Positions 7,697 to 37,066 of a stretch of 64,000 bases of DNA are shown one piece after another. This DNA comes from Nanobdellota archaeon (GTDB lineage Archaea > Nanobdellota > Nanobdellia > Woesearchaeales > GW2011-AR4): the NCBI GenBank assembly GCA_038046385.1, contig JBBSWH010000009.1, positions 47,039-111,038 on the forward strand, read 5' to 3'. Under the pieces are notes generated by a model. It did no database searches, had not been told where the DNA came from, and was given only the letters and a program-made list of their open reading frames with translations. Each line of letters opens with the position of its first letter. Position 1 is the stretch's first letter. The translations under genes and the position numbers were made by a program.

Positions 7697-7707
7697 AAGA
7701 TTAAGAT

Positions 7708-9309: not shown

Positions 9310-9336
9310 CTTATTTTATGTTTTAACTTCATTATT

Positions 9337-10116: not shown

Positions 10117-10120
10117 TCAC

Positions 10121-11215
10121 CTATTTAAGAAATTTCCTAATATGGCTGCAAACTTCATTTATATCTTCATCTGAAAGCGTGAATGCGGACGGAAGCCACA
10201 ATGCTTTTTTCGAAAGCGATGTGCTGTTTGGAAATTTGTCATCAGGAAGCCTGTATGGCTTTTGCGTGTGAATCGGGTGCCAGAATCTTCTGCATATAAT
10301 TTTTTTTGACAGCAAATAAGAGTCAAGATCATCTCTTTTTTCTACAATGGCGTCAGTCCACTGTGGAACTTCCCCGTTTTTTATGTCAAAATCAAATAAC
10401 TTAATGCCTTTAACCCCTTCAAGGCCTTTCCTGTAAATCTCATTTATTTTTGCCTGCCTTTTTACCCTTTTATCAAGATAATGCAGCTGCCCCAAGCCGA
10501 CAGCAGCCTGCAGATCAGTGAATTTGAAGTTATATCCTATTGAGTTATGCATGTCATCCCCGCCAGTGCCCCTCACAGGCCTGCCGTGGTCCTTTATCTC
10601 GATGAGCCTTTTATGAAGCGCATCGTCATTTGTTACGATAACTCCTCCCTGTCCCATTGTTATCGTCTTGTGGGCCGAAAAGGAAAAACATCCTGTTGCG
10701 CCGAAAGTTCCGAGATACTTATTATTGTGCTTTGACATTAGGGCCTCTGCAGCATCCTCAACAACATGCACATTATTTTTTTTGGCTATTTCTATAATCT
10801 CTTCCATGGGTGCGGCCCTTCCTGTCACGTGCACCGGAACGACAGCTTTTGTCTTTTTGCTTATTGCATCCCTGAAGGATTTTGCGCTTATGTTAAGATC
10901 TTCTTTATTGACATCAACCAGCACCGGCTTTGCGCCTGTCATTTCCACTGCATTTGCAGTTGCTATGAATGTGATATCAGGCACGATAACCTCGTCGCCA
11001 TGGCCGACGCCCAACGCCTTCAGCGAAACATAAATTGCAGCAGTGCAGCTTGTCACAACAACCGCGTGTTTGCAATTGACAAGCTTACATATTTCTTGCT
11101 CAAATCTTGCAGACATCGGGCCTTCGTTCGGGAAGCTGCTGTCAAGAACTTCTTTTATGTATTTGTGCTCTTCTTTCCCTATTTCAGGAACCCACCATTT
11201 TATAGGATTTGGCAT
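10121..11215 (-). CDS. DegT/DnrJ/EryC1/StrS PLP-dependent sugar aminotransferase
   Basis: Motifs TFIATANA, EDAAEA, SFSAHKTITMGQGG (Schiff-base Lys) and GYNFK. Confidence 0.93.
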   Translation of the reverse strand: MPNPIKWWVPEIGKEEHKYIKEVLDSSFPNEGPMSARFEQEICKLVNCKHAVVVTSCTAAIYVSLKALGVGHGDEVIVPDITFIATANAVEMTGAKPVLVDVNKEDLNISAKSFRDAISKKTKAVVPVHVTGRAAPMEEIIEIAKKNNVHVVEDAAEALMSKHNNKYLGTFGATGCFSFSAHKTITMGQGGVIVTNDDALHKRLIEIKDHGRPVRGTGGDDMHNSIGYNFKFTDLQAAVGLGQLHYLDKRVKRQAKINEIYRKGLEGVKGIKLFDFDIKNGEVPQWTDAIVEKRDDLDSYLLSKKIICRRFWHPIHTQKPYRLPDDKFPNSTSLSKKALWLPSAFTLSDEDINEVCSHIRKFLK

Positions 11216-17925: not shown

Positions 17926-19734
17926 TTATTTTTCCATCACTTTTATAAAATCAGGGGCATTGTATTTTTTTGAAATGTCATATTGCCACAGCTCCGTTCC
18001 ATTTTTCTTTTCCTTTAGCTTAAACCCATTATTCTTATAAAAATCCTTTGCAACTTCATTCTTATTTGTAGGAATAAAAAATGCCTTTAGCTGTTTTGCT
18101 TTTTTGGCTTTTGCTTCTTTTATTATAAACCAGAGCATAGACTCTTCAATCTTTCTTCCAATAACCCTGCAGCTCAGAAGGAATGTGTCAATTTCCCATT
18201 CATCAGCAGATTTTTTGATGATTGCTGCTCCTACAATCCCATTGTCCCCAAATTTATCCCTGCTCCTGACAGAAACTACAATCTCATTTTTGTTATTTGA
18301 CATTTTTTGAATATCCTCTTCAAGATACCTTTTTGTTGTCATATTGAACTGGTTTGTTTTTTGAGTCAGCTGTGATATCCTCGGAATGCTGAAGCTGCTG
18401 GCTTTTTCTATTGCAACAACGCTTCCAAGGCTTTTGAGATAAGAGTCTATATCTTTTGATGAGCTTTGAAGCTCTGCCCTTTTCCTTTGCTCTGCATACA
18501 TTTTTCCTTTTTTAAAATCCTCTTCAGTTATGCTGAATAAATTGAAGTCATTTGTTTCCATCAGGGTTTTTAGGTAAAGCGACGGGTCTTCCGGCATGTC
18601 AACAACAGTTACCTCGGGAAGCATTTTCCTGACAAAATCCCTGTTTAATTTATCATCGTCAATGAAGACCAGGCTATCTAAGCCTATGTTAAGCTCTTTT
18701 GCAATTTCTGCAATGTTTGATGCTTTGTCATCCCAGTTTATTTTCATGGATGCGAAATTGTTTTCCCTTAAGACCATGTCGGGATGTTTTTTAAAAACTT
18801 CAATTGCATCATTAAAATTGTTTTTGCTGCTTATTGCAAGTATCACACCTCTTTCGAACATCGCCAGCAGCGCTTTCTGGAACTCCGTAAACGGCCTTCC
18901 TTCAGGAGTGTTTCCTATTTTTATGCCTTCAATTCCGTCTTCTCCTATTATTCCGCCCCAAAGCGTGTTGTCAAGATCAAGCACGATGCATTTTTTTGTC
19001 AGGATCATCAACGGCTTTATGTAACCCATGTAATCTTTGCACAAATAAGGAACGCTCTGAATGCTTAGCCTGATATCTCCCATGTAATACATCTTGAAAT
19101 CTGTTGTATTTTCTTTGCCGATTTTTGAGCAGAACGATTCATAATCAAACAGGAACACTTTTGGATTATTTTTGCAATAATCCCTTAAATCAGAGTTTAA
19201 TTTTTCAACAGACTCTTTTAACCCAAAATCCTGCCGGTTTTCAAGAATTCCTATAGGGGAGTAAACAGGAACTTCAAAGTTATGCACAACTATTTTTGCA
19301 GTTGTTTTTTTCTCCAGTTTTTCAATAAGAATTTTTATGTCATTAAATTTTGAATTTATGTATGTTTTTCTCTTGCCGGATGATATGGAATACGGATTTA
19401 GGAAATAATCCTGCAGAATTGATTTTGTGTCAATGAAAAGAATCACAAGGCTTGGATTGAATTTGTACAAATCACTCGAATCATCAAGGATTTCCTGGGA
19501 ATACTGATTATATCCCCCGATGTAAATATCTGGGGTTATGCCTGCTTCGCAGCATTTCACAAAGATAGATTCTTTAAATCCGTTTGAAGTAAAGCTCGAG
19601 AGAAAGGCAACTTTCAGCTTCTTGCCGCTTATCTTATTTTTTTTAATTTCAGAATTCAGATGTTTGTAGAGGTTGATGTAGTCCGGCATGTTTTTTGGAT
19701 TTTTTTTCTTTATTATCTGGATTATTCTTTTCAT
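17926..19734 (-). CDS. FkbH-like HAD-IIIC glyceryl-transferase/phosphatase
   Basis: Motifs VLDLDNTLWGG, SKNN, KINWDDK, FIDD, QKTNQFN, DKFGDNG and LLSCRVIGR (acyl-carrying Cys), with a long N-terminal extension. Confidence 0.93.
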   Translation of the reverse strand: MKRIIQIIKKKNPKNMPDYINLYKHLNSEIKKNKISGKKLKVAFLSSFTSNGFKESIFVKCCEAGITPDIYIGGYNQYSQEILDDSSDLYKFNPSLVILFIDTKSILQDYFLNPYSISSGKRKTYINSKFNDIKILIEKLEKKTTAKIVVHNFEVPVYSPIGILENRQDFGLKESVEKLNSDLRDYCKNNPKVFLFDYESFCSKIGKENTTDFKMYYMGDIRLSIQSVPYLCKDYMGYIKPLMILTKKCIVLDLDNTLWGGIIGEDGIEGIKIGNTPEGRPFTEFQKALLAMFERGVILAISSKNNFNDAIEVFKKHPDMVLRENNFASMKINWDDKASNIAEIAKELNIGLDSLVFIDDDKLNRDFVRKMLPEVTVVDMPEDPSLYLKTLMETNDFNLFSITEEDFKKGKMYAEQRKRAELQSSSKDIDSYLKSLGSVVAIEKASSFSIPRISQLTQKTNQFNMTTKRYLEEDIQKMSNNKNEIVVSVRSRDKFGDNGIVGAAIIKKSADEWEIDTFLLSCRVIGRKIEESMLWFIIKEAKAKKAKQLKAFFIPTNKNEVAKDFYKNNGFKLKEKKNGTELWQYDISKKYNAPDFIKVMEK

Positions 19735-22429: not shown

Positions 22430-23014
22430 ATGCCAAAATTTCTCATACATCCGACAGCAGATGTTGCAAAAAATGCAAAAATAGGAAATGGAACTAAGAT
22501 ATGGCACCATTGCCACGTAAGGGAAAATGTTTCTATAGGGAAAAACTGCATTCTTGGCAAGAATGTTTACATTGACCATAATATCAAAATAGGCAACAAT
22601 GTAAAGATACAGAACAACTGCTCCATTTATTTTGATTCTAAAATTGAAGACGGAGTTTTTATAGGGCCCCATGTGGTTTTTACAAACGACACAAATCCAA
22701 GGGCGATCACAAGAGACGGGAAAATTAAATCAGCAAATGAATGGAATGCCGGAAAGATTCTGATAAAAAAAGGAGCTTCAATAGGCGCACGCTCTGTTTT
22801 ACTGCCGAATTTGACTATTGGAACCTTTGCAATGGTTGGCGCAGGATCTGTTGTAACAAAAAATGTTGGTGATTACCGCTTGGTGTATGGGAATCCTGCA
22901 AGAGTCATGGGCTTCGTATGCGCGTGTGGGCATAAAATAAAAAATCCAGAGATGGAAAAATCCAAGATAGTATTGAAATGCGATAAGTGCAAGCATACCA
23001 CAATAACAAAATGA
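22430..23014 (+). CDS. WbpD/WlbB-like sugar N-acetyltransferase (hexapeptide repeat)
   Basis: Motifs IHPTADV, KIWH, KIQNN, FTND..PR, GNPAR and a C-terminal CxCG...CxxC. Confidence 0.9.
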   Translation: MPKFLIHPTADVAKNAKIGNGTKIWHHCHVRENVSIGKNCILGKNVYIDHNIKIGNNVKIQNNCSIYFDSKIEDGVFIGPHVVFTNDTNPRAITRDGKIKSANEWNAGKILIKKGASIGARSVLLPNLTIGTFAMVGAGSVVTKNVGDYRLVYGNPARVMGFVCACGHKIKNPEMEKSKIVLKCDKCKHTTITK

Positions 23015-24108
23015 TAAATATTTCCAAGCCTTCTATCGGAAAAGAGGAGATTGATGCTGTTGTTAATGTCCTTAAATCAGGAATGATAGCGCAGGGGCCG
23101 AAAACAAAGGAATTTGAGCAGGAATTTGCAAAATTTGCTGGGGTAAAATATGCTGTAGCAATGAATTCCGGAACAGCAGCCCTGCACGCTGCGCTTTATG
23201 CAGCAGGCGTGAAAGAAAATGATGAAGTCATAACAACTCCATTTACATTCATTGCAACTGCAAATTCCATTCTTATGCAGAATGCAAAGCCAGTCTTTGC
23301 TGATATAGAAGAAGATAATTTCAACATTGATGCTTCCCAGATTGAAAATAAAATAACAAAAAAGACAAAGGCAATACTTGCTGTTGACCTTTATGGGCAC
23401 CCTTATGCTTATGATGATGTAAAGGAGATTGCTGACAAGCACGGGCTTAAGATAATAGAGGATGCATGCCAGGCTGTTGGCGCTGATTTTAACGGAAAGA
23501 AATGCGGCTCTTTAGGGGATATTGGAACGTTTTCATTCTATGCGACAAAAAACATGACAACAGCAGAGGGCGGAATGCTCACGACAGACAATGAAGAATA
23601 CGCTGAGCTTGCAAAACAGCTTCGTCATCATGGGCAGAGCGAAAAAGTAAGATACGAATATTTCGGCCTTGGATACAATTACAGGATGACAGACATAAAT
23701 GCTGCAATCGGGCTTGAGCAGATGAAGAAGATAAATGAATGGAACAAAAAAAGGATAGACAATGCAGCTTTTTTGAGCAAACGCCTTGGGAAAATAAAAG
23801 GAATAAAAGTTCCTGCTGTTCAGAAGAACTGTACGCACGTTTTCCACCAATATACCATTATTGTAAAAGATGATTTCAAAATGAAAAGAGACGGGCTTAT
23901 GGAACATCTTAAGCAGAAAGGCGTTGGAAGCGGAGTTTATTATCCAAAGCCGCTGCACTTATTTAAGCACATTTCAAAATTCGGATACAAGCAAGGGGAT
24001 TTTCCGGTTGCAGAAAAACTTTCTCAGCAGGTTTTGTCTTTGCCAATCCATCCGCAGCTTACAAAAGAAGAGCTTGAAACAATAGCAAAAGCATTCGAGG
24101 AAATATGA
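23011..24108 (+). CDS. WbpE/WlbC-like DegT aminotransferase
   Basis: Motifs NSGTAAL, EDACQA, SFYATKNMTTAEGG and GYNYRM. ATG 23011 overlaps the previous stop (ATGA). Confidence 0.92.
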   Translation: MINISKPSIGKEEIDAVVNVLKSGMIAQGPKTKEFEQEFAKFAGVKYAVAMNSGTAALHAALYAAGVKENDEVITTPFTFIATANSILMQNAKPVFADIEEDNFNIDASQIENKITKKTKAILAVDLYGHPYAYDDVKEIADKHGLKIIEDACQAVGADFNGKKCGSLGDIGTFSFYATKNMTTAEGGMLTTDNEEYAELAKQLRHHGQSEKVRYEYFGLGYNYRMTDINAAIGLEQMKKINEWNKKRIDNAAFLSKRLGKIKGIKVPAVQKNCTHVFHQYTIIVKDDFKMKRDGLMEHLKQKGVGSGVYYPKPLHLFKHISKFGYKQGDFPVAEKLSQQVLSLPIHPQLTKEELETIAKAFEEI

Positions 24109-25100
24109 AACTTAAAGTTGCAGTTATCGGAGCAGGTGCAATGGGCAAGAACCATGCAAGAGTTTATTCTGAGATGAAGAATGTTGAGCTTGTTGCAGTA
24201 TGCGATTCCAGCAAAGAAGTTGGCGGGCAGATTGCAGCGCTTTACGGCGCAAAATACTATTCTGATTACAAAGATATGCTTGCAAAAGAGAAGCTTGACG
24301 CGGTTTCAATCTGCGTTCCGACAAAATTTCACCGTGAAGTTTCTATTGCAGTTATCAAAAAGAAAATAAATGTGCTTGTTGAAAAGCCGATTGCGACTAC
24401 TGTTTCGGAAGCAGAAGAAATAATTTCAGAAGCGCAGAAAAATAAAGTAAAACTAATGATTGGCCACATTGAGTGCTTTAATCCGGTTGTTGTTGAACTG
24501 AAAAGAAGAATTGCCGGGGGAGAGCTTGGCAAGATATACAAAGTCCATTGCAACAGGATGGGGCCTTCTGTTCAGAGAATTTATGATGTTGGCGTTATCA
24601 TAGACATTGCAATCCATGAGATTTACATTCTGAAGTACCTTATTGACTCTGATGTCAAGAGAGTTTATGCAGAGACAGAAAGGAAGATACACTCAACACA
24701 CGAAGATTTGCTTATAGGGACAATACGATTCAGCAACGATGTGCTTGGTGTTATCAATGCAAACTGGATTACGCCTAGGAAGTTCAGGGAGATAACGGTT
24801 ACAGGCGAGAAAGGAATGTTTGTTGCCAATTATCTGACCCAGGATCTTGATTTTTATGAGAACGATTTTGTCAAGAAAAATATTGACTACAAAAGCCACA
24901 CAATGCTTGTGATGGAAGGAAAGAAAATTCCTATTGATGTGAAGAAAAGCGAGCCACTTCGCAATGAGCTTGATGCTTTTGTTGACTGTGTTTTAAACGA
25001 CAAAAAAGTGCCTGTAACTGGCAATGAAGGGCTTGAAGCTTTGCGTGTTGCGCAGAAGTTCCTTGAGTCATCTAAACAGAATAAAGTGATGGAATTATGA
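24105..25100 (+). CDS. WbpB/WlbA-like Gfo/Idh/MocA sugar 3-dehydrogenase
   Basis: Motifs GAGAMGKNHAR, VEKP, GHIECFNP and DIAIHE. Confidence 0.9.
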   Translation: MKLKVAVIGAGAMGKNHARVYSEMKNVELVAVCDSSKEVGGQIAALYGAKYYSDYKDMLAKEKLDAVSICVPTKFHREVSIAVIKKKINVLVEKPIATTVSEAEEIISEAQKNKVKLMIGHIECFNPVVVELKRRIAGGELGKIYKVHCNRMGPSVQRIYDVGVIIDIAIHEIYILKYLIDSDVKRVYAETERKIHSTHEDLLIGTIRFSNDVLGVINANWITPRKFREITVTGEKGMFVANYLTQDLDFYENDFVKKNIDYKSHTMLVMEGKKIPIDVKKSEPLRNELDAFVDCVLNDKKVPVTGNEGLEALRVAQKFLESSKQNKVMEL

Positions 25101-26275
25101 AAATAAGCGTTTCCGGCTTGGGAAAGGCAGGATTGCCATTGGCTGCGGTTATTGCAGATGCAGGAATTGATGTTATCGGAATAGATGTTGATGTTAAAAG
25201 GGTTGCCGACATTAACAATGGAGTTAATCCAATACCGGAAGAAACCGGATTATCTTCTTTAATTAAGAAATACGGCGGGAAGAGATTAAAGGCAACTACA
25301 AATGCTGCCGATGCTGTAAAGGAAACTTCTGCCCATATTGTGATTGTTCCTTTGTTTATTGATTCCGCGAAGAAATGCGATTTTTCTTTGTTACAGAAGG
25401 CTTTTACTGATATTGGAAACTCTCTTAAGAAGAATGATGTTGTTGTGCTTGAAACAACTGTTCCGGTTGGGACAACAGAGACTTTTGTGAAAGGGATACT
25501 TGAGAAAGAGTCTGGACTTAAATGTGGTTCTGATTTTTACCTTGCATATTCTCCTGAGAGGATAATGACGGGATATTCTATTTCACGCTTTAAGGAATTT
25601 CCAAAATTGGTTGGAGGGGTTGATGCTAAAAGTTCGCAAAAGGCATTTGAAGTTTATTCAAAGTTTGCAAACCCTGTCAAGGTTAGTAATTCAAGAACAG
25701 CAGAGCTTGCGAAAGTATCTGAAGGCGTTTATCGCGATGTCAATATTGCTTTAGCCAATGAATTGCTTAAAGTTGCTGAACATTATTCAATAGACTTCTG
25801 GGAGATGAAAGAGGCTGCAAATCACCAGTTTTGCAACATACACGAGCCAGGGAATGTCGGAGGGCATTGTATTCCAGTCTATCCGTGGTTTTTAATTAAT
25901 TCACTTGATGTTCCACTGATTAAAGTTGCACGCAAACTGAATGATGATATGATTGAATTCTATGCTGGCAAGGTTGCTGCAATTGGTGGGAAGAAAGTCG
26001 GAGTGATTGGACTAAGCTACAGGGAAGGCGTCAAGGAAAAGGCATATTCACGCTCTGTTGACATGATTAAACTGCTTCAGAAGAAAGGATATGATGTTTA
26101 TGGGTATGATCTGCTTTATTCTGCAGAAGAAACTTTGAAAGAGTTCGGCTGCAAGTATCTTGATGACTTTGGAAAGATGGATGTTTTGATACTGATGAAC
26201 AAGGAAGTTTCTTTGAAAAGCAAATTACTTAAGATGAAGGATAAGGTTGTTGATGTGAAGAATGTTTTAAGATGA
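25097..26275 (+). CDS. WbpA-like UDP-GlcNAc 6-dehydrogenase
   Basis: Motifs GLGKAGLP, ETTVPVGTT, YSPER, YRDVNIALANE and GGHCIPVYP. Confidence 0.9.
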   Translation: MKISVSGLGKAGLPLAAVIADAGIDVIGIDVDVKRVADINNGVNPIPEETGLSSLIKKYGGKRLKATTNAADAVKETSAHIVIVPLFIDSAKKCDFSLLQKAFTDIGNSLKKNDVVVLETTVPVGTTETFVKGILEKESGLKCGSDFYLAYSPERIMTGYSISRFKEFPKLVGGVDAKSSQKAFEVYSKFANPVKVSNSRTAELAKVSEGVYRDVNIALANELLKVAEHYSIDFWEMKEAANHQFCNIHEPGNVGGHCIPVYPWFLINSLDVPLIKVARKLNDDMIEFYAGKVAAIGGKKVGVIGLSYREGVKEKAYSRSVDMIKLLQKKGYDVYGYDLLYSAEETLKEFGCKYLDDFGKMDVLILMNKEVSLKSKLLKMKDKVVDVKNVLR

Positions 26276-26279
26276 AACA

Positions 26280-28034
26280 TTAATCAATAAGTTTACGATA
26301 AGCTTCATTTATTTTTCTAAATCTACTATCTGCCAAAATTTGAAATTGTTTATCTAAGTGGTTTACTTTATCTGGGTGATTTAAGCTAGCCAATTTTTTA
26401 TAAGCAGATGTAATCTCTTCTTTGCTAGAATTTTTTAGAATTCCTAAAATTTCGAAAGGGTCGGTTATGGAATTACCTCCTAGTTCTTCTATATGCGGTT
26501 GATGAATACCTAATATTTTTAATTCTTCAATTCCCGATTTCCAATTCATATGTTGACTTTTTTTGTGCAATTTTTCGTGTTGTTTATGAGTTATAATTGC
26601 TAAATTAGATAAATCATAATTTGAAATATCTTTATCTACGTGGTGCACAACCAAGTCCTCAAAACTTTTTCCAGGATAATGCTTGTTAAACCACCTGGAG
26701 TAAAAGTCAAATATTTCTTTTTTTGCTAGATATTTATGAATTTCAGTATCTGTTTTTACTGTATATATCCCATTTTCATCTTTGTTAACAAAACAGGGAT
26801 AATATGCATTCTTTATATTTGGATTTCTCCATTCCCAAAAACCTCTAGTAGGACTAGGCCTTGGTACAGTCAAATCTTTAATTTTTTCTTTAGATTCCAA
26901 CAATTCTTTTTCCCGTTCAGCAATATCTTTTCTTTCAGATTCTATTTTTTCTTTCATTTCTTGTGTCTTATCTAAATTACTCCTTGCTTCGGTTAACATA
27001 CTTTTTGAATCAGATAGTTGTCTTTTTTTATCTTCTAAAGCCTCCTCCTGAAATTTAATATTTTGAACCAATATGTTTTGTTTTTTTACTAATTCGTTAT
27101 GGGATTTCTCGTGACGTTTTTTTGCATCTTCATATTCTTTTTTTGCAGCTTCTCTAGCTTTCTTTCTTTGTATTGCTTCTCTTTCCATCCATCTTTTTTT
27201 ATTTTTATAGTTGTACAACCATATTAAGGATATTATGAGAATAATAAGAAGTACCACAAAAGCAATACCTAATATTGTTTTAGTTCTTTCTCGTTTTATT
27301 TTTTCTGCCTCAATCTGTGTTGGAGACTTAGCACACCTACCACTATCATCGGTAAAATTAGTTTTACATTCAATAGGGCCACAAAATGGGATATCTCCTT
27401 CAGGCAGATTATTGTATACACATCTATTATTTTTACATTGAATCATATCCCATCTTTCACATCTACAATTATCTAAATAACATTCTGGTTTATTGTTGCA
27501 GATTTTCTCAACACAAAACCCCCCACCACACTCCTCTTTTGTGGAACATTCAGCACCATCATCTAGACAAGATACACCATTGCATACTTTACATACATCC
27601 CTTTTTTTTGTTACATTTATTTCTTTAGGAACCAAAAATTTTGGTTCGGATAGATAATAAGTGATATTATCTTTTTTTATGCTACATTCTCCATAAACAT
27701 TATCTTTAAAACATATTTCATTTATTTTATCATAATCTTTAGCTTTAATTCTTGATGAAGAAGTTGATACATCAGAAATAAAACCTTCTATACTATAAGT
27801 AATAAATGCTTTTATTTCGTATGGATTAGGGTTAAACACCGTAAAAATGCTTTTATTATTCACACTTATAAAATCTGAAAATACCAATGCGTCTGCAATC
27901 TTTACTGAAGAATCTTGATACGTTAGTGCTATCTCTAGTTGTTGATATTCTTCTTGTAGATTATATTGACAAGCAAAAGAACCAGTTGATAAAAGTAACA
28001 GTATCAACAAACCAATAATTATCAGTTTACTCAT
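26280..28034 (-). CDS. Single-pass membrane protein: signal peptide, Cys-rich ectodomain, TM, coiled coil, HNH endonuclease, C-terminal J (DnaJ) domain
   Basis: N-terminal MSKLIIIGLLILLLLSTGSFAC, a Cys-dense block, TM TILGIAFVVLLIILIISLIWLY, a K/E-rich coil, HNH VVHHVDKDISNYDLSNL...HEKLH, and J-domain DPFEILG...AYKKLA..NHPDK...FRKINEAY. Confidence 0.82.
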   Translation of the reverse strand: MSKLIIIGLLILLLLSTGSFACQYNLQEEYQQLEIALTYQDSSVKIADALVFSDFISVNNKSIFTVFNPNPYEIKAFITYSIEGFISDVSTSSSRIKAKDYDKINEICFKDNVYGECSIKKDNITYYLSEPKFLVPKEINVTKKRDVCKVCNGVSCLDDGAECSTKEECGGGFCVEKICNNKPECYLDNCRCERWDMIQCKNNRCVYNNLPEGDIPFCGPIECKTNFTDDSGRCAKSPTQIEAEKIKRERTKTILGIAFVVLLIILIISLIWLYNYKNKKRWMEREAIQRKKAREAAKKEYEDAKKRHEKSHNELVKKQNILVQNIKFQEEALEDKKRQLSDSKSMLTEARSNLDKTQEMKEKIESERKDIAEREKELLESKEKIKDLTVPRPSPTRGFWEWRNPNIKNAYYPCFVNKDENGIYTVKTDTEIHKYLAKKEIFDFYSRWFNKHYPGKSFEDLVVHHVDKDISNYDLSNLAIITHKQHEKLHKKSQHMNWKSGIEELKILGIHQPHIEELGGNSITDPFEILGILKNSSKEEITSAYKKLASLNHPDKVNHLDKQFQILADSRFRKINEAYRKLID

Positions 28035-28103
28035 TATTATTCATAACCCCCAACACCAAATCTCGATAAACACTATTTAAACTTTGCCAATAGAACCTCC
28101 TTC

Positions 28104-28120
28104 CATAAGCTTTTTAAAGC
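28104..28120 (+). promoter_or_regulatory. Archaeal BRE/TATA-like promoter
   Basis: CATAAGCTTTTTAAAGC, with TTTTTAAA 22 nt before ATG 28141. Confidence 0.55.
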
Positions 28121-28140
28121 ATTAAATAGAGCGTTATTAT

Positions 28141-29094
28141 ATGAAAATAAAGGGAAAGAAGCTGTTCATCACAGGCGGAGCTGGATTCATTGCAAGCCAT
28201 TTAATCGAACGCTTGATAGATGACAATGAAATCATCGTTTACGACACGATGCACAGGAATGCGCTGCAATACACTGACCTTCAAAAGCACAAGAATCTCA
28301 AGATAATAAAAGGCGATGTTCTGGATCAAGAGCAATTAGAAAAGTCATTAGGAAATTCTGATACTGTTATCCACATGGCGTCAATTGCAGGAGTTTCAAC
28401 TGTTGTCGAGCATCCAGCCTTGACATTAAAGATAAACTTGATTGGAACTTATAATCTTCTCGAGGCGTGCAGGAAAAAAGGAATAAAAAGGTTCATTTCA
28501 TTCTCCACAAGCGAAGTTTACGGCCCAAATATATACCAGGCTGATGAAAACGGATTTACAACAATAGGCGCAGTAGGCCAGCCAAGATGGACATATGCCA
28601 TGTCAAAATTGGCAGGCGAGTTTATGGCTTACAGCTACTTCAAGGAGCACGGGATAAGGTTTACAAGCTTAAGGCCGTTTAATGTCTATGGCCCAAGGCA
28701 GGTTGGGGAAGGCGCAATCCACAATTTCATTGTTAAAGCCGTAAATGGTGAGCCATTGACAGTCCACGAGCCTGGCTCGCAAGTAAGGTCATGGTGCTAC
28801 ATAACGGATATGGTAGATGCAATAGAATCAGTTTTGACAACAAAAGAATCTGAAGGGGAAGTTTTCAACATAGGAACGCCGCAGGCGACTTCAACAACGC
28901 TGCAGACAGCTGAAACTGTTATAAGGCTTGCAAATTCAAAATCAAAGATAGAATTCAAGGAGATAAAATACCCTGATGTTGAGATAAGGGTTCCAAGCAT
29001 AAAGAAGGCAGAAAGAATTCTCAATTTTAAGCCAAAAGTGGGCTTTGAAGAAGGCATAAAGAATACAATCGAGTGGTATAAAAAGCAAAAATGA
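28141..29094 (+). CDS. NAD-dependent nucleotide-sugar epimerase/dehydratase/decarboxylase (extended SDR)
   Basis: Motifs TGGAGFIA, STSEVYG, RWTYAMSK and FNVYGP. Confidence 0.92.
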   Translation: MKIKGKKLFITGGAGFIASHLIERLIDDNEIIVYDTMHRNALQYTDLQKHKNLKIIKGDVLDQEQLEKSLGNSDTVIHMASIAGVSTVVEHPALTLKINLIGTYNLLEACRKKGIKRFISFSTSEVYGPNIYQADENGFTTIGAVGQPRWTYAMSKLAGEFMAYSYFKEHGIRFTSLRPFNVYGPRQVGEGAIHNFIVKAVNGEPLTVHEPGSQVRSWCYITDMVDAIESVLTTKESEGEVFNIGTPQATSTTLQTAETVIRLANSKSKIEFKEIKYPDVEIRVPSIKKAERILNFKPKVGFEEGIKNTIEWYKKQK

Positions 29095-29996
29095 AAATAT
29101 TGCTTACCGGCGCATCAGGCTTCATCGGAAAAAATTTCCTTGAGCTTGCGCCAAAAGATCTAGAAATTGTTGCAGTTTACAATAATTCTAAAGATGTTGA
29201 AAATTTTGTAAAAGAAAAGAAGCTAAGCAACGTAACGCTGCACAAATGCGACTTAAACAATGAAGATGAAGTAAAACATCTTTTCAAGAAGCACGGGCAT
29301 TTTGACAACTGCATTTATTTAGCTGGAAATGTCAACATACCTTTGTCGATAAAAGAGCCGATGAAAGATTTGAATGCGAATGTATTTGCCTTAATTAATT
29401 TCCTCAAAAATTCTGATATTGACAGGATAATCTATATGTCATCTGCAGCTGTTTACGAGGGCAATAGCGGAAAAGTAACGGTTTCAACACCGTTGAATCC
29501 GCATGTGCCTTATAGCATCTCGAAGCTGCTTGGGGAGCAGTGTGTCATTGCATTCTGCAACACAAAAAAAATAAAGAATTATGCTATAATAAGATTTGGG
29601 GGAGCATTCGGAAAGTATTCGGAGCATAAGTTCATGACACAATTAGCAAGGCAATTACTGCAAGGCAGCAAAACAATAGAAGTTTACGGCGATGGCACAA
29701 ACATAATCAATGTGATGTATGCCAAAGACACAATAAATGCCCTGATAAAATGCCTGAAGAGCAGAAAAATAAATAATATATCCAACCTCGGGCAGGATAA
29801 CATGACAATAGCCCAAACAGTAAAAAGGACAGCAAAGGCTTTGAACAAAAAAATAAAAATAACTTATACAGAAAAAAGAAAAGACCAGAAATACATATCA
29901 TTCAGCACAGACAACAGCTTCAACAAAATCTTTAATTTTAAGCCAAAGTATTCTTTTGAAGAGGGAATAAAAGAATTTGCATCGACACTAAAATGA
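29091..29996 (+). CDS. NAD-dependent epimerase/reductase (extended SDR)
   Basis: Motifs TGASGFIG, SSAAVY and YSISK. Confidence 0.88.
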   Translation: MKILLTGASGFIGKNFLELAPKDLEIVAVYNNSKDVENFVKEKKLSNVTLHKCDLNNEDEVKHLFKKHGHFDNCIYLAGNVNIPLSIKEPMKDLNANVFALINFLKNSDIDRIIYMSSAAVYEGNSGKVTVSTPLNPHVPYSISKLLGEQCVIAFCNTKKIKNYAIIRFGGAFGKYSEHKFMTQLARQLLQGSKTIEVYGDGTNIINVMYAKDTINALIKCLKSRKINNISNLGQDNMTIAQTVKRTAKALNKKIKITYTEKRKDQKYISFSTDNSFNKIFNFKPKYSFEEGIKEFASTLK

Positions 29997-30952
29997 AAAT
30001 TAAAATATCTTTTGTGATTCTGTCATACAATGACTCAGACATGGCAATAAATGCCATACAATCAATAAAAAAGCTGAAAACAAAATACAAATATGACATT
30101 TTTGTCGTTGACAACGGCTCAATAGGCGGCGCAAAATCAATAAAAAACAAATTCAAGGACGTAAAAGTAATTGAGCTAAAGGAAAATGCCGGGACAGCTG
30201 CATATGACTATGCCATAAAAAAATCAGATGCAAAGTACATATATTTTACCGGCTGCGACATTGAAGCAAAAGAAGACATGCTGGACAAACTTGTACATTT
30301 CCTAGAAAAAAACAATGACGCAGTGCAGGCGGCGCCAAAATATATAAGCATATACGATAAAAAGACAATCGATTTAGCAGGAACGTGGCTTTCAAGATCT
30401 TTTTATTCAGGAACTTTCAAGGACAATACTCTTGGAAGCAAGCCGGCTGAGATACCCTACATTGGAACGGGACTGATAAGGAAGGATTTTATTGACAGAT
30501 GGGGATATTTATTTGATAATGATTATTTTTTCTATGGGGAAGATGTTGATTTAGGATTAAGAATAAGACTGATGGGCTACAAAGTCTATTACATACCAGA
30601 TTCAATTGTTTACCATGCAGGATCAATGTCAAGAAGAGTGCATAAACCATCATACCTTACCTTTTTGATGGAAAGAAACCTTATGAGGACATTTTACCAG
30701 ACAATGTCAGTCAAAAGCATAATGAAATTTAAGATATACGGCCTGCTGATGCGGATTATTGCAATAATAAAAGACATTTTGACATTAAATATAGGAAATG
30801 CATTTGCAAGGTTAAAGGCAATTCTTTGGATGATATTTAACATCGTTAAAGTATTCAGAAAAAGAAATGAAGTGCAGAAGATGAGAAAAGTTAAAGACGA
30901 AGAACTGCTGAAGCATTTCAGCGAAAAGCACTTATGGAGCAGAATTATATAA
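29993..30952 (+). CDS. Glycosyltransferase family 2 (WbbL/rhamnosyltransferase-like)
   Basis: Motifs VILSYN, VVDNGS, FFYGEDVDLGLR, VYH and ERN. Confidence 0.88.
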   Translation: MKIKISFVILSYNDSDMAINAIQSIKKLKTKYKYDIFVVDNGSIGGAKSIKNKFKDVKVIELKENAGTAAYDYAIKKSDAKYIYFTGCDIEAKEDMLDKLVHFLEKNNDAVQAAPKYISIYDKKTIDLAGTWLSRSFYSGTFKDNTLGSKPAEIPYIGTGLIRKDFIDRWGYLFDNDYFFYGEDVDLGLRIRLMGYKVYYIPDSIVYHAGSMSRRVHKPSYLTFLMERNLMRTFYQTMSVKSIMKFKIYGLLMRIIAIIKDILTLNIGNAFARLKAILWMIFNIVKVFRKRNEVQKMRKVKDEELLKHFSEKHLWSRII

Positions 30953-30962
30953 AAAAATCAAA

Positions 30963-32402
30963 ATGAAAAAAACTCCAATTTACAAAAACAAAAAACTATT
31001 GCTGGCGTTAATAGTTTTATTTGGGATTATCTTGAGGCTTGCATTCTTTACAGGCATGGCAATATCAGATTCGCTGGCATACAGCAAGGCTGCAAACGAC
31101 ATAAATCTCGGAAAAGGGATTGACCAGGGAAGCACTTTAACTTTGTCTACGAGAATTGGAATAGTCTATGCAACAGCTTTATCTTACAGGATTTTCGGAA
31201 TCAGTGATTTTTCATCTGTATTTTTTGTATTGCTCAGCTCGATAGGGGGAATCATACTGATTTATTATTTTGGAAAGCTATTGTTTAATGAGAATATAGG
31301 ATTAATAGCAGCTTTCCTGCTGTCTTTTTTCCCGCTGGATGCTGTTTATTCTACACAGGTTGTTTCAGACATTCCATCAGCATTTTTTATGTCTCTTGGA
31401 GTTTATGTTTTCCTGTACAATGAGATAAAAAACAAATCCGGATGCCTGAATTACCTGCTATCCGGATTATTCATAGGGATTGGATATTTAATAAGGGAAA
31501 GCGCACTGCTTATTGCACTGTTCTTCATTGCTTATATCATCTACAGCAGAAAAATAAAGCTCCAGTATCTCATGGTTCCGCTCGGAGTCTTGATTGTGCT
31601 GGCATTTGAAATGCTTGTTTTCTTTAATCTTACCGGAGATCCTTTCTTCAGGTTTACAGCATCGCAAAATTACCTTAAGGAAGCTTCTGCATTGCACAAT
31701 TACTTCGGAAGGCTAGATTTTCCTGCAGGATTATTCCATTATCCGTGGATGTTCCTCACAAACGGGCTTTTGTCAGGATTTTATACCCTGGCTTTTATTG
31801 CTGCATTATATTTTCTGATTAAGAGGAAAAAGAAAACATATTTTCTTTTGCTTTGGTTTATTTCTTTGCTTACCTACTTAAGCTTCGGCTCCGGCAGCCT
31901 GACATCATACATACCATTCCGCGCTGTTGACAGGTACACAATGATAGCAACAGTTCCTGCATTGCTTTTGGTTGCAGTGTTCCTAAAAGAAAACAGATTT
32001 ATTGAAAATAAAAAATTAATGCTTTTTGTTATTGGACTTTTGTTGCTATTATCAGTCTTTGCAATACACCTGCACGACAACAGAAACCAGCTCGGAAGAT
32101 TAAGGGAGCTTAGTTTAGAAATCTCAGGATTTCAAAAGCCAATTTACATTGATGAAAGGTCTGTGCTTGCGCTGGGCTACATATCCAGCTTTAAAAGCAG
32201 CCTTGATTTAAGGCAATATCCGGATGACATGTCAAAAATAAGCAGTTCTTATGCAATAATAAATGCGGAAATGATAAGAAACATCAGGGAGGCAAACCCA
32301 ACAATAATTTTTCCAAAAGAAACGGAAAGCATACCTCTGAACTGGCAATTGGCAAAAGAAATTGGAACAAAGGAAAAAATATCCATTTATGAGATAAAAT
32401 GA
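30963..32402 (+). CDS. GT-C (ArnT/PMT_2, GT39-like) membrane glycosyltransferase
   Basis: LRL-TM1 is followed by SDSLAY, then multiple TMs, GDP and DRY motifs. Confidence 0.8.
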   Translation: MKKTPIYKNKKLLLALIVLFGIILRLAFFTGMAISDSLAYSKAANDINLGKGIDQGSTLTLSTRIGIVYATALSYRIFGISDFSSVFFVLLSSIGGIILIYYFGKLLFNENIGLIAAFLLSFFPLDAVYSTQVVSDIPSAFFMSLGVYVFLYNEIKNKSGCLNYLLSGLFIGIGYLIRESALLIALFFIAYIIYSRKIKLQYLMVPLGVLIVLAFEMLVFFNLTGDPFFRFTASQNYLKEASALHNYFGRLDFPAGLFHYPWMFLTNGLLSGFYTLAFIAALYFLIKRKKKTYFLLLWFISLLTYLSFGSGSLTSYIPFRAVDRYTMIATVPALLLVAVFLKENRFIENKKLMLFVIGLLLLLSVFAIHLHDNRNQLGRLRELSLEISGFQKPIYIDERSVLALGYISSFKSSLDLRQYPDDMSKISSSYAIINAEMIRNIREANPTIIFPKETESIPLNWQLAKEIGTKEKISIYEIK

Positions 32403-34575: not shown

Positions 34576-35697
34576 CTACTGCTCAGAATCCAGCAATCCC
34601 ATTAAATAGTTTTCTATTTCAGGAAATTTTCCGATTAAGCTGATGTTTTCTTCCGGGTCATCTTCAAGATTGTAAAGCTCGTTTTTTCCGCTGGTTTCGT
34701 TGATTATAAGCTTCCATTTGCTGTTTCTTACGCACTTGACATTATGTTTTTCAGGAGACGGAGTTGGGCCCCCCAAGCCTCCTGTTTCGGAATACGATGT
34801 TCTTTCGTCTTTTTTGCCTTTTATCAGCGGAAGGAAAGTTTTTCCCTGCATTTTCATATAATCTGATTTTTCTTTGATTCCAAGAGCATCAAGCAGCGTC
34901 GGCATTATGTCTATGCTTCTTACAAGGCCGTTTACTTCAAGCCCTTTTGTGAAGCCATTGCCGATGGCATATAAAAAGCACTTTATAGTATAATCATAAA
35001 GATATGAGCCGTAAGCCTTTTCCCCAACTTTGTCCCCTATGCTTGCCCCATGATCATTAAAAACAATTATTATGGAATTTTCCCACAGCCCCAATTCTTT
35101 TATCTTATTGATTATCGATTTCAAATAAACCGCGCTTGCCTCAAGATATTTTATGTAGCTTTCCAGATTCTTATCCTTATTTTTGAAGTATTCCTCATCG
35201 AAATCGGTGTATTTTTTTATCACATTGCTGACAAGGCTTGTGTGCAGCTTGCTGTAGTCAAGGAAAAGATAAAAAGGAAGCTTGCCTTTTATTCTGGTTA
35301 GGATTTCCGAATGTCTTTCTACTAAGTCATCATTGAACTCGTCATGAACAGTCAGCTTGTCAAACCCCTGAGAAGGAACAGTGTCGCCGCGTATCAAATC
35401 ACCTTCAGTATAGTATCCCTGTTCCTTTAAGTATTGAGGAAGCGTAAAGCATTCTTTCTTTTTGAAGCTGAATGCTTTGTAGTATCCGTCAACTCCGTTT
35501 TTATTTCCATATACTCCTGAGAATGTGGCGTGCAATGAGGCTATCGTGTAAGGCGCATAAGTTATCATCTGCGAGAAAAAAACACCTTCTTTTTTCAGCT
35601 CATTGTAGTAAGGCACTTTTTCTAAAGTGTTGTGCCTTGCCCCGTCCATCAGTATCATTATTACATTGGGCCTTTTTCTTTTCAAAAAACTGAGCAT
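34576..35697 (-). CDS. Sulfatase-like / alkaline-phosphatase-superfamily hydrolase or transferase
   Basis: Motifs RPNVIMILMD, PYTIASLHATFSG, NDHG, DIMPTLLD and ELYNLEDDPEE. Confidence 0.85.
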   Translation of the reverse strand: MLSFLKRKRPNVIMILMDGARHNTLEKVPYYNELKKEGVFFSQMITYAPYTIASLHATFSGVYGNKNGVDGYYKAFSFKKKECFTLPQYLKEQGYYTEGDLIRGDTVPSQGFDKLTVHDEFNDDLVERHSEILTRIKGKLPFYLFLDYSKLHTSLVSNVIKKYTDFDEEYFKNKDKNLESYIKYLEASAVYLKSIINKIKELGLWENSIIIVFNDHGASIGDKVGEKAYGSYLYDYTIKCFLYAIGNGFTKGLEVNGLVRSIDIMPTLLDALGIKEKSDYMKMQGKTFLPLIKGKKDERTSYSETGGLGGPTPSPEKHNVKCVRNSKWKLIINETSGKNELYNLEDDPEENISLIGKFPEIENYLMGLLDSEQ

Positions 35698-35734
35698 AAG
35701 AAAGATTAATATCTGTAATTTATAAATTTATCAG

Positions 35735-37066
35735 TCAGTCCATATATCCGAGGCTGCGCAGCAGCTTTTTTGACTTTTCTGTCAAGTCAGGCTCGTTCCC
35801 ATCTGATTTTTCATTACGCATCCATGCCTGAAGGCCTGCTTTGAGCGCATCTGCCTTTTCCTTTTCCGCATCTATCATATTTTTTGTTTCATCAGGATCT
35901 TCTTTTATGTTGTAAAGCTCGAAAATGCTGTTTTCGGGATGCGGTATGCAAATCAGCTTCCACTCATTGGACCTTATCATGCGCCATTTGCCCTTTATGC
36001 CGTCTATGTAATGCCTGCTATTATCCTTAAAGTAGCTTATCCCCCCTTCTGCATACGAGAGCTTTCTCCATTCTGACTTCTCGGCGCATTTTACCAGACT
36101 TTTGCCGTCAATCTTGTCTATGAGCGGCATCTTCAGAATATCCAATATTGTTGGCATTATGTCGGTGGACTGCACCTGGAAATCATACCTCGAATCGGGA
36201 AGAATCTTTTTGCTGAATATCAGCGGGACTTTCAGCTCTGCGTCATATGCATAGTCTCCATGGCTGAAGTAAATATTATGCTCCCCTAGAGACTCGCCGT
36301 GGTCTGAAGTGACAATTATCAGGGTCTCATCAATCAGCTTCTTTTTTTCAAGGTGGCTGATTATCCGGCCTATCTGGAAATCAATATACCTTAAGGCGCC
36401 GTCGTAATGGGATATTGCATGCGTTATCTCCTTTTGTGAAAGATTGTTCCTGAAAATCAAGTCGCTTCTCCTGATTTTTTTAAGGTTCATGAAGATATGC
36501 TCTCCAGTATACTCCTTATCAAACATTTTACTGTAAGGGTGTTCTACATCATAGGGCCAATGCGCGTCTACATAATGCAGATAAAGAAAAAAATTCTTGC
36601 CTTTTGCTTCATTTATCTTTTTCACTGCAAAATTCGTCAGGGCTTTTCCAGTGCCTTCTTTATGCTTCCACTTCACTGCCTTTATCATTGACCTTCTTAT
36701 CTTGTTGATTATTTTCCATGACAGCGGATTAAAAGAATCAAATCCTTTTTCTAATCCGGAATTCCTTATATCTATTGAATGGCCAGAAGTCTTATATCCA
36801 TGGGATTTCAGTATTTCCTGCAATGTTGATACAGAAGGCTTCAGCCTGTCAGTGTACAGCTCTCTTATTCCATGGGAATGCGGATAAAGTCCCGTGAGAA
36901 TCGAGGCCACTGAAGGGGTTGTTCTTGGTATTGTTGCCATGCAATTCGGAAAAATGACGCCATTTTTTGCAAGCCCGTCTATGTTTGGAGTCGTATCTCT
37001 TTTGTACCCGTTTATGCCAAGATGATCCGACCTAAGGCAATCGACAACTATTAAAATTACATTCAT
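35735..37066 (-). CDS. Sulfatase-like / alkaline-phosphatase-superfamily hydrolase or transferase
   Basis: Motifs NVILIVVDCLRSDH, TPNID, RTTPSVASILTG, DAHWPY, TSDHGE, ELYNIKEDPDE and C-terminal LRSLGY. Confidence 0.9.
   Translation of the reverse strand: MNVILIVVDCLRSDHLGINGYKRDTTPNIDGLAKNGVIFPNCMATIPRTTPSVASILTGLYPHSHGIRELYTDRLKPSVSTLQEILKSHGYKTSGHSIDIRNSGLEKGFDSFNPLSWKIINKIRRSMIKAVKWKHKEGTGKALTNFAVKKINEAKGKNFFLYLHYVDAHWPYDVEHPYSKMFDKEYTGEHIFMNLKKIRRSDLIFRNNLSQKEITHAISHYDGALRYIDFQIGRIISHLEKKKLIDETLIIVTSDHGESLGEHNIYFSHGDYAYDAELKVPLIFSKKILPDSRYDFQVQSTDIMPTILDILKMPLIDKIDGKSLVKCAEKSEWRKLSYAEGGISYFKDNSRHYIDGIKGKWRMIRSNEWKLICIPHPENSIFELYNIKEDPDETKNMIDAEKEKADALKAGLQAWMRNEKSDGNEPDLTEKSKKLLRSLGYMD

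Follow-up and report, generated by a model that had tools for sequence, protein, structure and literature searches.

IRE1 is a bitopic sensor of eukaryotes whose outer domain governs both its oligomerisation and its cytosolic nuclease, and which is repressed by an Hsp70 and a J-protein; it combines a kinase with a KEN RNase and meets Hsp70 on the lumenal side. Among the HNH nucleases, colicin E9 has an active site with the spacing HH-x11-N-x8-H-x3-H, the usual HNH_3 form has Asn as its last metal ligand, and I-HmuI and the pyocin AP41 DNase are active DNases. The J-protein DjlA is anchored by an N-terminal transmembrane (TM) segment and is without ectodomain, coiled coil or nuclease. In type II Zorya, the HNH nickase ZorE is brought to the infection site by a complex in the membrane that extends a long tail into the cytoplasm (PMC11890865), and a study on Tiamat (10.64898/2026.09.30.754977) mentions the C-terminal J-domain of sacsin, followed by HEPN. 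Here we describe a gene, the HNH-J gene, that encodes an ectodomain, a membrane anchor, an HNH nuclease module and a J-domain on one chain. It lies in a stretch of 64,000 nt from a Nanobdellota archaeon (assembly GCA_038046385.1, contig JBBSWH010000009.1, positions 47,039-111,038 of the forward strand; hereafter the window). We consider it about an even chance that its product is the membrane-tethered DNase of a conflict module (defence or toxin-like) and that it is held in check here by DnaK via the J-domain.

Domain architecture of the HNH-J protein

The HNH-J gene (open reading frame (ORF) 26280..28034, minus strand) runs from an ATG start to a TAA stop and encodes 584 aa; the coordinates of its parts were verified by translation (Table 1). 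From the N- to the C-terminus, the protein consists of a signal peptide, an Ig-like beta-sandwich, a module with 15 Cys, one TM helix, a coiled coil of about 110 aa, an HNH_3 module and a C-terminal J-domain with an HPD tripeptide. An initial annotation of the window had named a signal peptide ending in SFAC, a Cys-dense region at about 27330-27600, one TM segment at 27220-27285, a long coiled coil, an HNH motif and a J-domain with intact HPD; all of these were recovered, with the boundaries given in Table 1.

The same annotation had raised the possibility of a chimeric assembly. We found the identical full-length architecture in at least ten independent contigs (P0002-P0007, P0058, L006, L045 and L046). 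P0002-P0007 are full-length homologues with the same order of parts and 64-39% identity to the window protein, the homologue in L006 comes from a Woesearchaeota metagenome-assembled genome, and those in L045 and L046 come from metagenomes. In public runs, a single contig of X1, which is possibly the source of the window DNA, covers the whole stretch, and contigs of X4, which belongs to another study, cover all 30 bins with zero differing letters. Single X4 contigs bridge the junction between J-domain and HNH module (26075-26750) and that between TM helix and ectodomain (27106-27583); none spans the whole gene. The GC content at third codon positions (GC3) is even across the four parts of the gene (0.17-0.20). 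An assembly chimera or a mis-called gene, in favour of which we found nothing, is thus refuted as far as contigs can show, and we give it virtually no weight.

A conserved HNH active site

The HNH module comprises a three-stranded sheet, helices, a beta-beta-alpha-Me core and a helical extension. Pfam HNH_3 (PF13392) matches residues 459-487 with 24.9 bits (cut-off 24.8), and in a six-frame search of the source genome (G000) HNH_3 reached 28.8 bits at the HNH-J gene, its sole match in that genome. Three HNH families of PHROGs also match this part (best 30.5 bits, E 5.8e-7), and distant relatives with the same ectodomain score 52.5, 51.3, 37.9 and 32.4 bits with Pfam HNH_3. An AlphaFold2 (AF2) model of residues 385-584 (m2b0d10345cc6, 18-row alignment) has a mean pLDDT of 87.7 and a pTM of 0.75. 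In this model, DSSP assigns strands at positions 78-81 (VVHH) and 94-97 and a helix at 99-106 (HxxxH), together a beta-beta-alpha-Me finger with pLDDT 90-97.

The catalytic residues have the spacing HH-x11-N-x8-H-x3-H. Among 124 HNH-bearing members of the family, which represent clusters under 50% identity, H464, H465, N477 and L478 are each present in all 124, H486 in 122, and H490 and D467 in 117 each, with Asn at the position of D467 in the other seven. A catalytic set that is near-invariant on a divergent background argues for an active enzyme, as do the swap to another type of HNH in one relative (P0120) and the separate HNH gene at another locus (L034), both described below. We predict that the HNH domain is an active DNase.

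A profile search of the PDB with the HNH-core alignment placed I-HmuI (1u3e, E 0.028) and the pyocin AP41 DNase (4uhp, E 0.05) at the top. The nearest folds to the HNH part in BFVD were phage HNH and homing endonucleases (prob 0.9-0.99, with weak E-values of 6e-3 to 8e-2). The same PDB profile search with the alignment of the whole cytoplasmic part (A3) returned coiled-coil noise only, and in searches of solved structures with the HNH+J model the match lists were filled by J-domains and no solved HNH fold was ranked. We detected no DNA-recognition domains of the homing-enzyme type in the HNH-J protein using Pfam, and no intron or intein context; the usual setting of a homing endonuclease is absent, the gene encoding a membrane protein and lying between glycan genes.

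The J-domain and its predicted Hsp70 partner

Pfam DnaJ (PF00226) matches the C-terminus with 47.4 bits (cut-off 27.8) over profile positions 1-55 of 63. The protein ends there, so that the fourth J-domain helix is missing and the model has three helices; the contacts of J-domains to DnaK are located in helices II and III and in the HPD tripeptide. The tripeptide sits between helices II and III, and NHPDK is present in all seven aligned J-bearing proteins. The modelled J-domain superposes on 2ctq with Z 9.0 and an rmsd of 1.5 A over 57 residues, and on 5nro_B, a J-domain bound to DnaK, with an rmsd of 1.6 A over 60 alignment columns. Two more specific assignments were rejected: canonical DnaJ/Hsp40 (TIGR02349) reached 38.9 bits against a cut-off of 377.2, the J-domain part alone aligning, and the DjlA equivalog (NF006948) reached 33.7 bits against a cut-off of 162.

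The initial annotation had also invoked a DnaK partner, and the source genome (1.28 Mb, 19 contigs, 85% complete) encodes one. Contig 1 of G000 carries a cluster of grpE (132522-132971), dnaK (133871-135607) and dnaJ (from 136914), with profile scores of 688 bits for DnaK, 145 bits for GrpE and 92 bits for DnaJ. Recruitment of DnaK by the HNH-J protein is thus a well-founded prediction.

The HSP70 profile matches this DnaK in two pieces (1-73 and 102-599) within one 648-aa frame, with about 28 positions near the N-terminus unmatched. A third J-domain of the genome (37.3 bits; C11:83653-83805) lies inside a 196-aa ORF of unknown type. In an order-level sample, the full-length profile matches 179 of 201 genomes, a tally that takes in four unpublished genomes (G121, G112, G183 and G132); most listed rows cover the J part only, in ORFs of about 360-400 aa that look like ordinary DnaJ.

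Sidedness, ectodomain and stalk

The TM helix lies between ectodomain and HNH module in all 124 HNH-bearing members, and 115 of them also have a hydrophobic segment at the N-terminus. The number of K and R within 15 residues is higher after the TM helix than before it in 94 of the 124, equal in 17 and lower in 13. Across these members, Cys density is 7.4 per 100 residues outside and 0.28 inside, and N-x-S/T sequons are enriched outside (433 vs 328 +- 17 shuffled) with no enrichment inside (123 vs 141 +- 12); the ectodomain of the window protein has four sequons. In the window protein, 18 of the 19 Cys are N-terminal to the TM helix, and the charge bias around it is neutral (5 vs 5); the topology argument therefore draws on the family-wide data, on the split of the Cys and on the signal peptide. 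HNH module and J-domain are predicted on these grounds to face the cytoplasm, the same side as DnaK. This agrees with the topology of the initial annotation, and the C-terminus is placed inside rather than outside the cell.

The protein starts with MSKLIIIGLLILLLLSTGSFA, followed by C, and C22-Q23-Y24 directly after the signal peptide is invariant in the alignments. A lipoprotein reading of SFAC was rejected: the residues before the invariant Cys vary among relatives (FA, IA, IN, IS, LE, LT, LD, LS), unlike in the lipobox consensus. An AF2 model of residues 20-245 (mfba9065867bf, 119-row alignment, mean pLDDT 97.0) has a beta-sandwich, then a small disulfide-rich module. Cys 163, 169, 174, 179, 192 and 205 are invariant in 119 sequences (C144, C150, C155, C160, C173 and C186 of the fragment starting at residue 20), and the Cys-rich module is present in a second copy in L019 and L021. 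The ectodomain has no family-level Pfam match. Foldseek with the ectodomain model gave no match at E <= 0.001; the best was the lumenal domain of TMEM106B (4.7e-3), followed by LEA14, DUF1425 and MG domains. A wide fold search (VIA) gave a best Z of 7.2 (transglutaminase beta-barrel) and none at Z >= 8, with matches spanning model residues 25-117 only. These fold searches hardly cover the Cys-rich part.

The stalk contains no Pro or Gly, and K, E, R, Q and D make up 56% of its residues. The hydrophobic contrast at heptad positions a and d is 0.391, compared with 0.269 +- 0.05 in shuffles, and was reached by 7 of 500 shuffles; matches to coiled-coil families are weak. Gaps in the alignment show that the length of the stalk differs among relatives.

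A conserved core with a minority J-domain

We searched 1.84 billion proteins with a profile of ectodomain and TM helix (A5), built from 12 sequences of the window and fetched loci. At E <= 0.001 it matched 321 representative clusters, and for 197 the match was as strong as E <= 1e-30. The examined set (n = 154) consists of the window protein, eight homologues and 145 proteins from the best 150 matches; 171 weaker ones were left out. The HNH module, detected with its own HMM, is present in 124 of the 154 proteins. Ten others have fewer than 40 aa after the TM helix and are tail-less or truncated, and 20 have other tails, among them P0120 with a classical HNH domain (PF01844, 21.9 bits, cut-off 21.4). 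A Pfam-supported J-domain was found in eight proteins (P0001-P0007 and P0058). The J-domain of P0102 scores below the cut-off (22 bits), and P0008 has a Myb domain instead (27.8 bits, cut-off 24.4); a local J profile gives ten matches, an overcount that includes this Myb tail. In the TM, HNH and J-domain combination for which the initial annotation had suggested a search, the J-domain does not belong to the core. That conserved core is ectodomain, TM helix, coiled coil and HNH module (124/154), with the J-domain (8/154) a later minority addition in one HNH lineage.

In a FastTree phylogeny of the HNH module, a single clade of 11 rows (support 94) unites the eight J-bearing proteins with P0008 and two tail-less proteins, and none of 500 label shuffles gave clustering as good as this. 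The fusion has thus been kept down to 39% identity, and the tree suggests that the J-domain was probably gained once in one HNH lineage and once exchanged for Myb. In the ectodomain tree, the same proteins fall in at least three places within one half, and the deep forks are weak; shuffling of modules between the outside and inside parts is possible.

Word-based homology searches, with the ectodomain alone or, among shorter proteins, with the HNH module alone, retrieved close relatives or one fragment only. The sole source label that we saw for a fragment of the family was DnaJ (COG2214/K03686), so that current annotation hides the nuclease. In the full texts searched (without supplements), in Pfam and in PADLOC, we found no account of a protein that joins TM helix, coiled coil and HNH module, whether or not a J-domain follows. 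Each part is of a known kind; what appears to be undescribed is their combination and the family as such. The initial annotation likewise knew of no description of the architecture.

Variant forms were seen at several loci. In L034, a 1195-aa ectodomain protein without HNH module (5395-8982, minus strand) is followed by a 153-aa PF01844 HNH gene (4842-5303, minus strand, 38.7 bits), and the pair resembles the family architecture divided over two genes; it is adjoined by a gene for a RecQ helicase. In L039, ectodomain (7984-8421, plus strand, 145 aa) and HNH part (8675-9433, plus strand, 252 aa) are in separate ORFs, probably a broken copy, and the neighbours are genes for a type I restriction R subunit, a YgjP-like peptidase and a HEPN protein. 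The same 64%-identical homologue occurs in two metagenome contigs, L044 (4087-5800) and L045 (4088-5824), split by a frameshift in the former (143 + 445 aa) and intact in the latter (578 aa).

Patchy distribution and composition

Among 401 genomes sampled from the phylum, the ectodomain profile has matches (E <= 1e-6) in 17, one of them G000 and another the unpublished G478. The family was not found in G408, which belongs to the same genus (93% complete), or in G015, G144, G366 and G449 of the same family (92-98% complete). This distribution bears on nucleotide scavenging, which the initial annotation had offered beside defence as a function. DNA uptake or scavenging at the symbiont-host interface, where the ectodomain would dock to the host or to import machinery and the nuclease would feed an auxotroph, suits the small genome (1.28 Mb), the siting of the nuclease at the inner membrane face and the dependence of DPANN archaea on hosts. 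A nutritional role should be widespread, yet the family occurs in 17/401 genomes and in 0/5 close relatives, and we found no recurring linkage to transporters or competence genes. A ribbon-helix-helix (RHH) partner and toxin-antitoxin or restriction neighbours (see below), together with a J-domain, are also unexpected for a feeding enzyme. We regard scavenging as improbable; of the two functions proposed, defence fits the patchiness and the neighbourhoods better.

Synteny is not conserved, and neither is the position within a glycan operon that the initial annotation had noted for the window gene. L006 is surrounded by MacB/FtsX, MatE, radical SAM and RLI genes, L045 by transketolase and transaldolase genes and then a Polbeta nucleotidyltransferase gene, and L046 by HhH-GPD, radical SAM and RadC-N genes and then GT2/GT9/GT2. 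The neighbour genes of relatives (same order) include archaeal markers, namely eIF-6, deoxyhypusine synthase, L7Ae, S28e, PolD DP2, Hjc and TFIIE.

The HNH-J gene is more AT-rich than its neighbours (GC 0.28-0.31 vs 0.38-0.42), as had been seen before, and its GC3 is 0.186, compared with 0.34-0.43 for its neighbours in the window. GC3 of the family gene is below that of the neighbours in all four loci tested, the other three being L045 (0.235 vs 0.35-0.45), L006 (0.271 vs 0.47-0.56) and L046 (0.312 vs 0.37-0.48). The bias is thus synonymous and travels with the gene; as a family trait in four genomes, AT-richness is by itself no proof of a recent insertion in the window. An empty-site test with window DNA from 23000 to 31000 found no syntenic region in G408 or G015 and two short pieces in G144, so that an insertion could not be shown.

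Toxin-antitoxin, restriction and mobile-element neighbours

We scanned three genes on each side of 19 family loci from 19 genomes (Pfam E <= 1e-6) and counted a locus if any neighbour belonged to a toxin-antitoxin, restriction or stand-alone nuclease, or mobile-element family; this rule was set before the control run but after the family neighbourhoods had been viewed. As control, each of these genomes contributed one locus, which a fixed rule picked (at a distance of about 40 kb, or on contig 1 at 10-27 kb); 17 remained, as two of the 19 stretches did not exist. Such neighbours were found in 11/19 family loci and 1/17 controls (Fisher p = 0.0013). The control locus counted was L064 (VapB + PIN); adding an off-list LAGLIDADG ORF gives 2/17 (p = 0.0058). 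The counted family loci are L025 (DUF2779, type IV secretion system (T4SS) pilin), L026 (DUF2779, NTP_transf_2), L029 (MazE), L030 (integrase), L031 (PDDEXK_1, Polbeta, AAA_21), L032 (HsdR), L034 (HNH), L036 (Bro-N), L038 (ParE), L039 (HsdR, HEPN) and L043 (Polbeta).

In four of the 19 loci (L029, L030, L038 and L040), an ORF of 101-104 aa on the same strand shares 4 nt with the start of the family gene. Identities among the four range from 41 to 56%, and all match RHH_1 (21.4 bits for member 1, cut-off 20.5) and CopG_antitoxin; the ORF of L029, the only one scanned against PHROGs, matches Arc-like repressor families. An HMM of the four found no further copy in any fetched locus or in the window. 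A complex prediction that paired the RHH protein with residues 285-471, the cytoplasmic part, of the adjacent family protein in L029 scored 0.00, which counts neither way on binding.

Taken together, patchiness, missing synteny, GC3 deficit, neighbours and the RHH gene are what is usually seen with a conflict gene, be it one of defence, a toxin or one of addiction. They can also be read as signs of a selfish addiction or exclusion module of mobile elements, that is, a toxin or entry-exclusion nuclease of integrated plasmids or viruses, kept because the cell dies when the regulator (RHH or DnaK control) is lost or because the DNA of competing elements is cut on entry. The 4-nt overlap of the RHH gene with the start recalls type II toxin-antitoxin pairs, genes for integrase, T4SS pilin, Bro-N, ORF6N and a HerA/TrwB-like ATPase occur nearby, the GC3 deficit looks foreign, and the HNH type is nearest to phage homing endonucleases. 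Against these stand the absence of relatives among viral contigs, the lack of an integrase or clear element borders at most loci, and a window copy without antitoxin-like neighbour; an elaborate, conserved and glycosylation-prone ectodomain would also be unneeded for an addiction toxin. We consider such an origin unlikely.

Genes for condensin (ScpA, ScpB, SMC) or gyrA lie within three genes of 4/19 family loci (Table 1): ScpA directly upstream on the same strand in L027, ScpB and gyrA beside L040, SMC near L030 and gyrA beside L033. Condensin and gyrase families are absent from the 17 control loci, though topoisomerase VI is present in L066. This would suit chromosome-membrane housekeeping, with an anchored nuclease or nickase serving segregation, decatenation or division. 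The pattern was spotted after the fact, a patchy distribution speaks against a core role, and the ectodomain and the RHH gene would be left unexplained; we judge a housekeeping function highly improbable.

Finally, the protein could be a non-catalytic, membrane-tethered DNA-binding regulator that tethers DNA or, once freed by proteolysis, regulates for example the surrounding glycan genes. The Myb domain that replaces the J-domain in one relative would suit such a role, and two loci of the J lineage adjoin glycosyltransferase genes, though such genes are also neighbours in 3/17 controls (L058, L065 and L069). A DNA-binding use of HNH-like folds is discussed as possible in 10.64898/2026.09.30.754977. 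However, 117-124 of the 124 members retain the full catalytic set, which would be unneeded for binding only, and we find a purely regulatory role the most improbable of the functional alternatives.

Several other features of these neighbourhoods were observed. In L006, a 75-aa HNH_3 ORF (7705-7932, plus strand, 42.1 bits) ends at the start base of the membrane HNH-J gene (7932-9713), placing two HNH genes in tandem, and a MazE-like ORF is found downstream at 10101-10424. The DUF2779 proteins of L025 (10902-12311) and L026 (2768-4168) have 466-469 aa, and the DUF2779 gene of L026 has a 4-nt overlap with the family gene at the start of the latter. The gyrA gene of L040 contains inteins with a LAGLIDADG domain. 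Weak PADLOC hits of 13-18 bits (LeoBC, LmuB, SAVED_TM) fall in or just after the TM helix and coiled coil, and homing-endonuclease models of PADLOC match the HNH part of one relative.

A possible mechanism

Immune sensing at the membrane level is little understood in prokaryotes, and defence in DPANN archaea, whose cells cannot be grown alone, is almost unknown. In the conflict module that we propose, an HNH DNase would be held at the inner face of the membrane by TM helix and stalk, and the stalks would form parallel oligomers. A virus particle or foreign cell that engages several ectodomains at the surface would cluster or reorient the stalks, which would raise the local concentration of HNH modules or lift autoinhibition. 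Nearby DNA would then be nicked or cut, either incoming DNA or, as abortive infection, the cell's own. Such cells are a few hundred nanometres wide, and a colicin-like HH-N-H-H DNase inside a very small cell would need a safety catch. In some relatives, the catch may be the translationally coupled RHH protein, and in others perhaps autoinhibition. Here the J-domain would load DnaK.ATP onto the adjacent nuclease module and hold it inactive, with release once DnaK is titrated away or the module remodelled. From its distribution and neighbourhoods, we infer an accessory antiviral or anti-plasmid defence or toxin-like element rather than a housekeeping or nutritional one. Only tentatively, and with considerable doubt, do we extend this to a DPANN family of single-chain TM immune receptors, in which a fast-diversifying ectodomain would sense a virus or foreign cell, the stalk would directly switch on the DNase at the entry site, and one lineage would have acquired an Hsp70 catch.

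A number of observations weigh against this proposal. The HNH_3 score of the window protein, 0.1 bit above the cut-off, is marginal by itself, and the profile matches to I-HmuI and pyocin AP41 are weak. The ectodomain model has a generic Ig-like fold, which points to no ligand. Gating of the nuclease by DnaK is something that we purely infer, because a J-domain shows recruitment of Hsp70 and not its effect. The neighbourhood comparison draws on a small sample of kin genomes, and many family loci are on short contigs and the controls on long ones, a possible bias toward variable regions; the condensin and gyrA neighbours point elsewhere. In the window, neither an RHH gene nor another obvious partner accompanies the HNH-J gene, which is surrounded by genes for glycan synthesis rather than defence. 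No defence model of PADLOC-DB v2, Zorya included, matches the family, and a search of viral contigs gave 17 pattern matches and zero relatives.

If the proposal is right, sensor, transducer and effector are on one polypeptide, so that each step is testable by truncations and point mutants, and with the J-domain lineage one could ask directly if a nuclease can be gated by Hsp70. Even without a role in defence, a conserved membrane-tethered cytoplasmic DNase, as predicted here, would call for an explanation of how the chromosome is spared.

Surroundings of the gene in the window

The HNH-J gene is inverted within a plus-strand run of glycan-synthesis genes. The genes before it encode, in order, a GT1 glycosyltransferase, a hexapeptide transferase, a DegT aminotransferase, a GFO/IDH oxidoreductase and a UDP-glucose/GDP-mannose dehydrogenase, and those after it two epimerases, a GT2, a PMT_2 and a polysaccharide flippase. 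It is directly flanked by the UDP-glucose dehydrogenase-family gene and the first epimerase gene (Table 1). The stop of the dehydrogenase-family gene (26275) and the convergent HNH-J stop codon (26280-26282) are separated by just 4 bases (26276-26279), which leaves no room for separate terminators. Upstream of the ATG, a 106-nt spacer separates the gene from the divergent epimerase gene. A TATA-like box, TTTAAATA, judged against the archaeal promoter consensus, and a G-rich GGGGT 8-13 nt before the ATG, both read by eye, are a possible promoter and ribosome-binding site of its own. Two adjacent sulfatase-family genes (373 and 443 aa; 34576-37066, minus strand) lie just past the glycan cluster, and an FkbH-like gene (17926-19734) precedes it.

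Table 1. Parts of the HNH-J gene, its flanking genes in the window, and condensin or gyrA genes near relatives
Feature	Residues	Position	Strand	Basis or detail
Signal peptide (MSK, hydrophobic core, SFA)	1-21	27972..28034	(-)	translation
Ig-like beta-sandwich, predicted extracellular	22-147	27594..27971	(-)	AF2 model
Cys-rich module, predicted extracellular, 15 Cys	148-234	27333..27593	(-)	translation
Single TM helix	254-274	27213..27275	(-)	hydropathy peak 3.24
Coiled-coil stalk, predicted cytoplasmic, alpha-helical	282-390	26865..27191	(-)	composition, heptads
HNH_3 nuclease module, predicted cytoplasmic	393-520	26475..26858	(-)	Pfam, PHROGs, six-frame search
beta-beta-alpha-Me catalytic core	462-490	26565..26651	(-)	H464 H465 D467 N477 L478 H486 H490; VVHH-D-N-NL-H-H
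J-domain, C-terminal, helices I-III	525-584	26283..26462	(-)	Pfam DnaJ
HPD tripeptide	553-555	26370..26378	(-)	translation
Putative TATA-like box		28074..28081	(-)	about 40 nt upstream of ATG; by eye
UDP-glucose dehydrogenase-family gene		25097-26275	(+)	
Epimerase gene		28141-29094	(+)	
ScpA, L027		7726-8493		
ScpB and gyrA, L040		8769-9527, 2067-6998		
SMC, L030		2873-6358		
gyrA, L033		4319-6757		

Comparison with known systems

The best profile family for the nuclease is that of I-HmuI (1u3e) and the phage HNH_3 homing endonucleases; the 'hR...HH-D...NN...NL' part aligns with I-HmuI. The HNH-J protein differs from these in its membrane anchor behind an ectodomain and in its last metal ligands, His-His compared with Asn in the aligned consensus. 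The pyocin AP41 DNase (4uhp) aligns over HH..N..H..H with the spacing HH-x11-N-x8-H-x3-H, a weak match at E 0.05. DNases of colicins and pyocins need a protective partner, and we propose the same for the HNH-J protein. They are secreted, imported into rivals and paired with immunity proteins, whereas the HNH-J protein is predicted to be tethered in its own cell and no immunity-like gene was seen.

With E. coli DjlA, a type III J-protein, it shares a TM anchor, a cytoplasmic C-terminal J-domain and a longer stretch after the HPD tripeptide, and the DjlA model aligns with residues 489-581. Sacsin, as mentioned in the Tiamat study, likewise has a J-domain directly beside a nuclease-family domain in one chain; it is eukaryotic, giant and soluble, has HEPN in place of HNH and the reverse domain order, and the homology is limited to the J-domain. 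The relatives with an RHH gene resemble type II toxin-antitoxin systems with an RHH antitoxin of the CopG/Arc type, in that a gene of about 100 aa overlaps the start by 4 nt at four loci. Unlike in those systems, the 'toxin' would be a membrane protein of 380-470 aa, and the window copy is without the RHH gene.

Zorya type II (ZorA5B2 + ZorE) is similar in having an envelope-facing membrane unit, a long cytoplasmic helical tail and an HNH nuclease near the membrane. Zorya is bacterial and consists of three proteins, with a MotAB-like ion-driven motor and a soluble, recruited ZorE, whereas here a single bitopic chain without motor is found in archaea; the likeness would be one of logic and not of descent. 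The likeness of the HNH-J protein to IRE1 is likewise offered as an analogy only. If the more tentative reading as an immune receptor is true, the HNH-J protein would stand as a prokaryotic counterpart to receptor nucleases of the IRE1 type, and as Zorya condensed into one protein.

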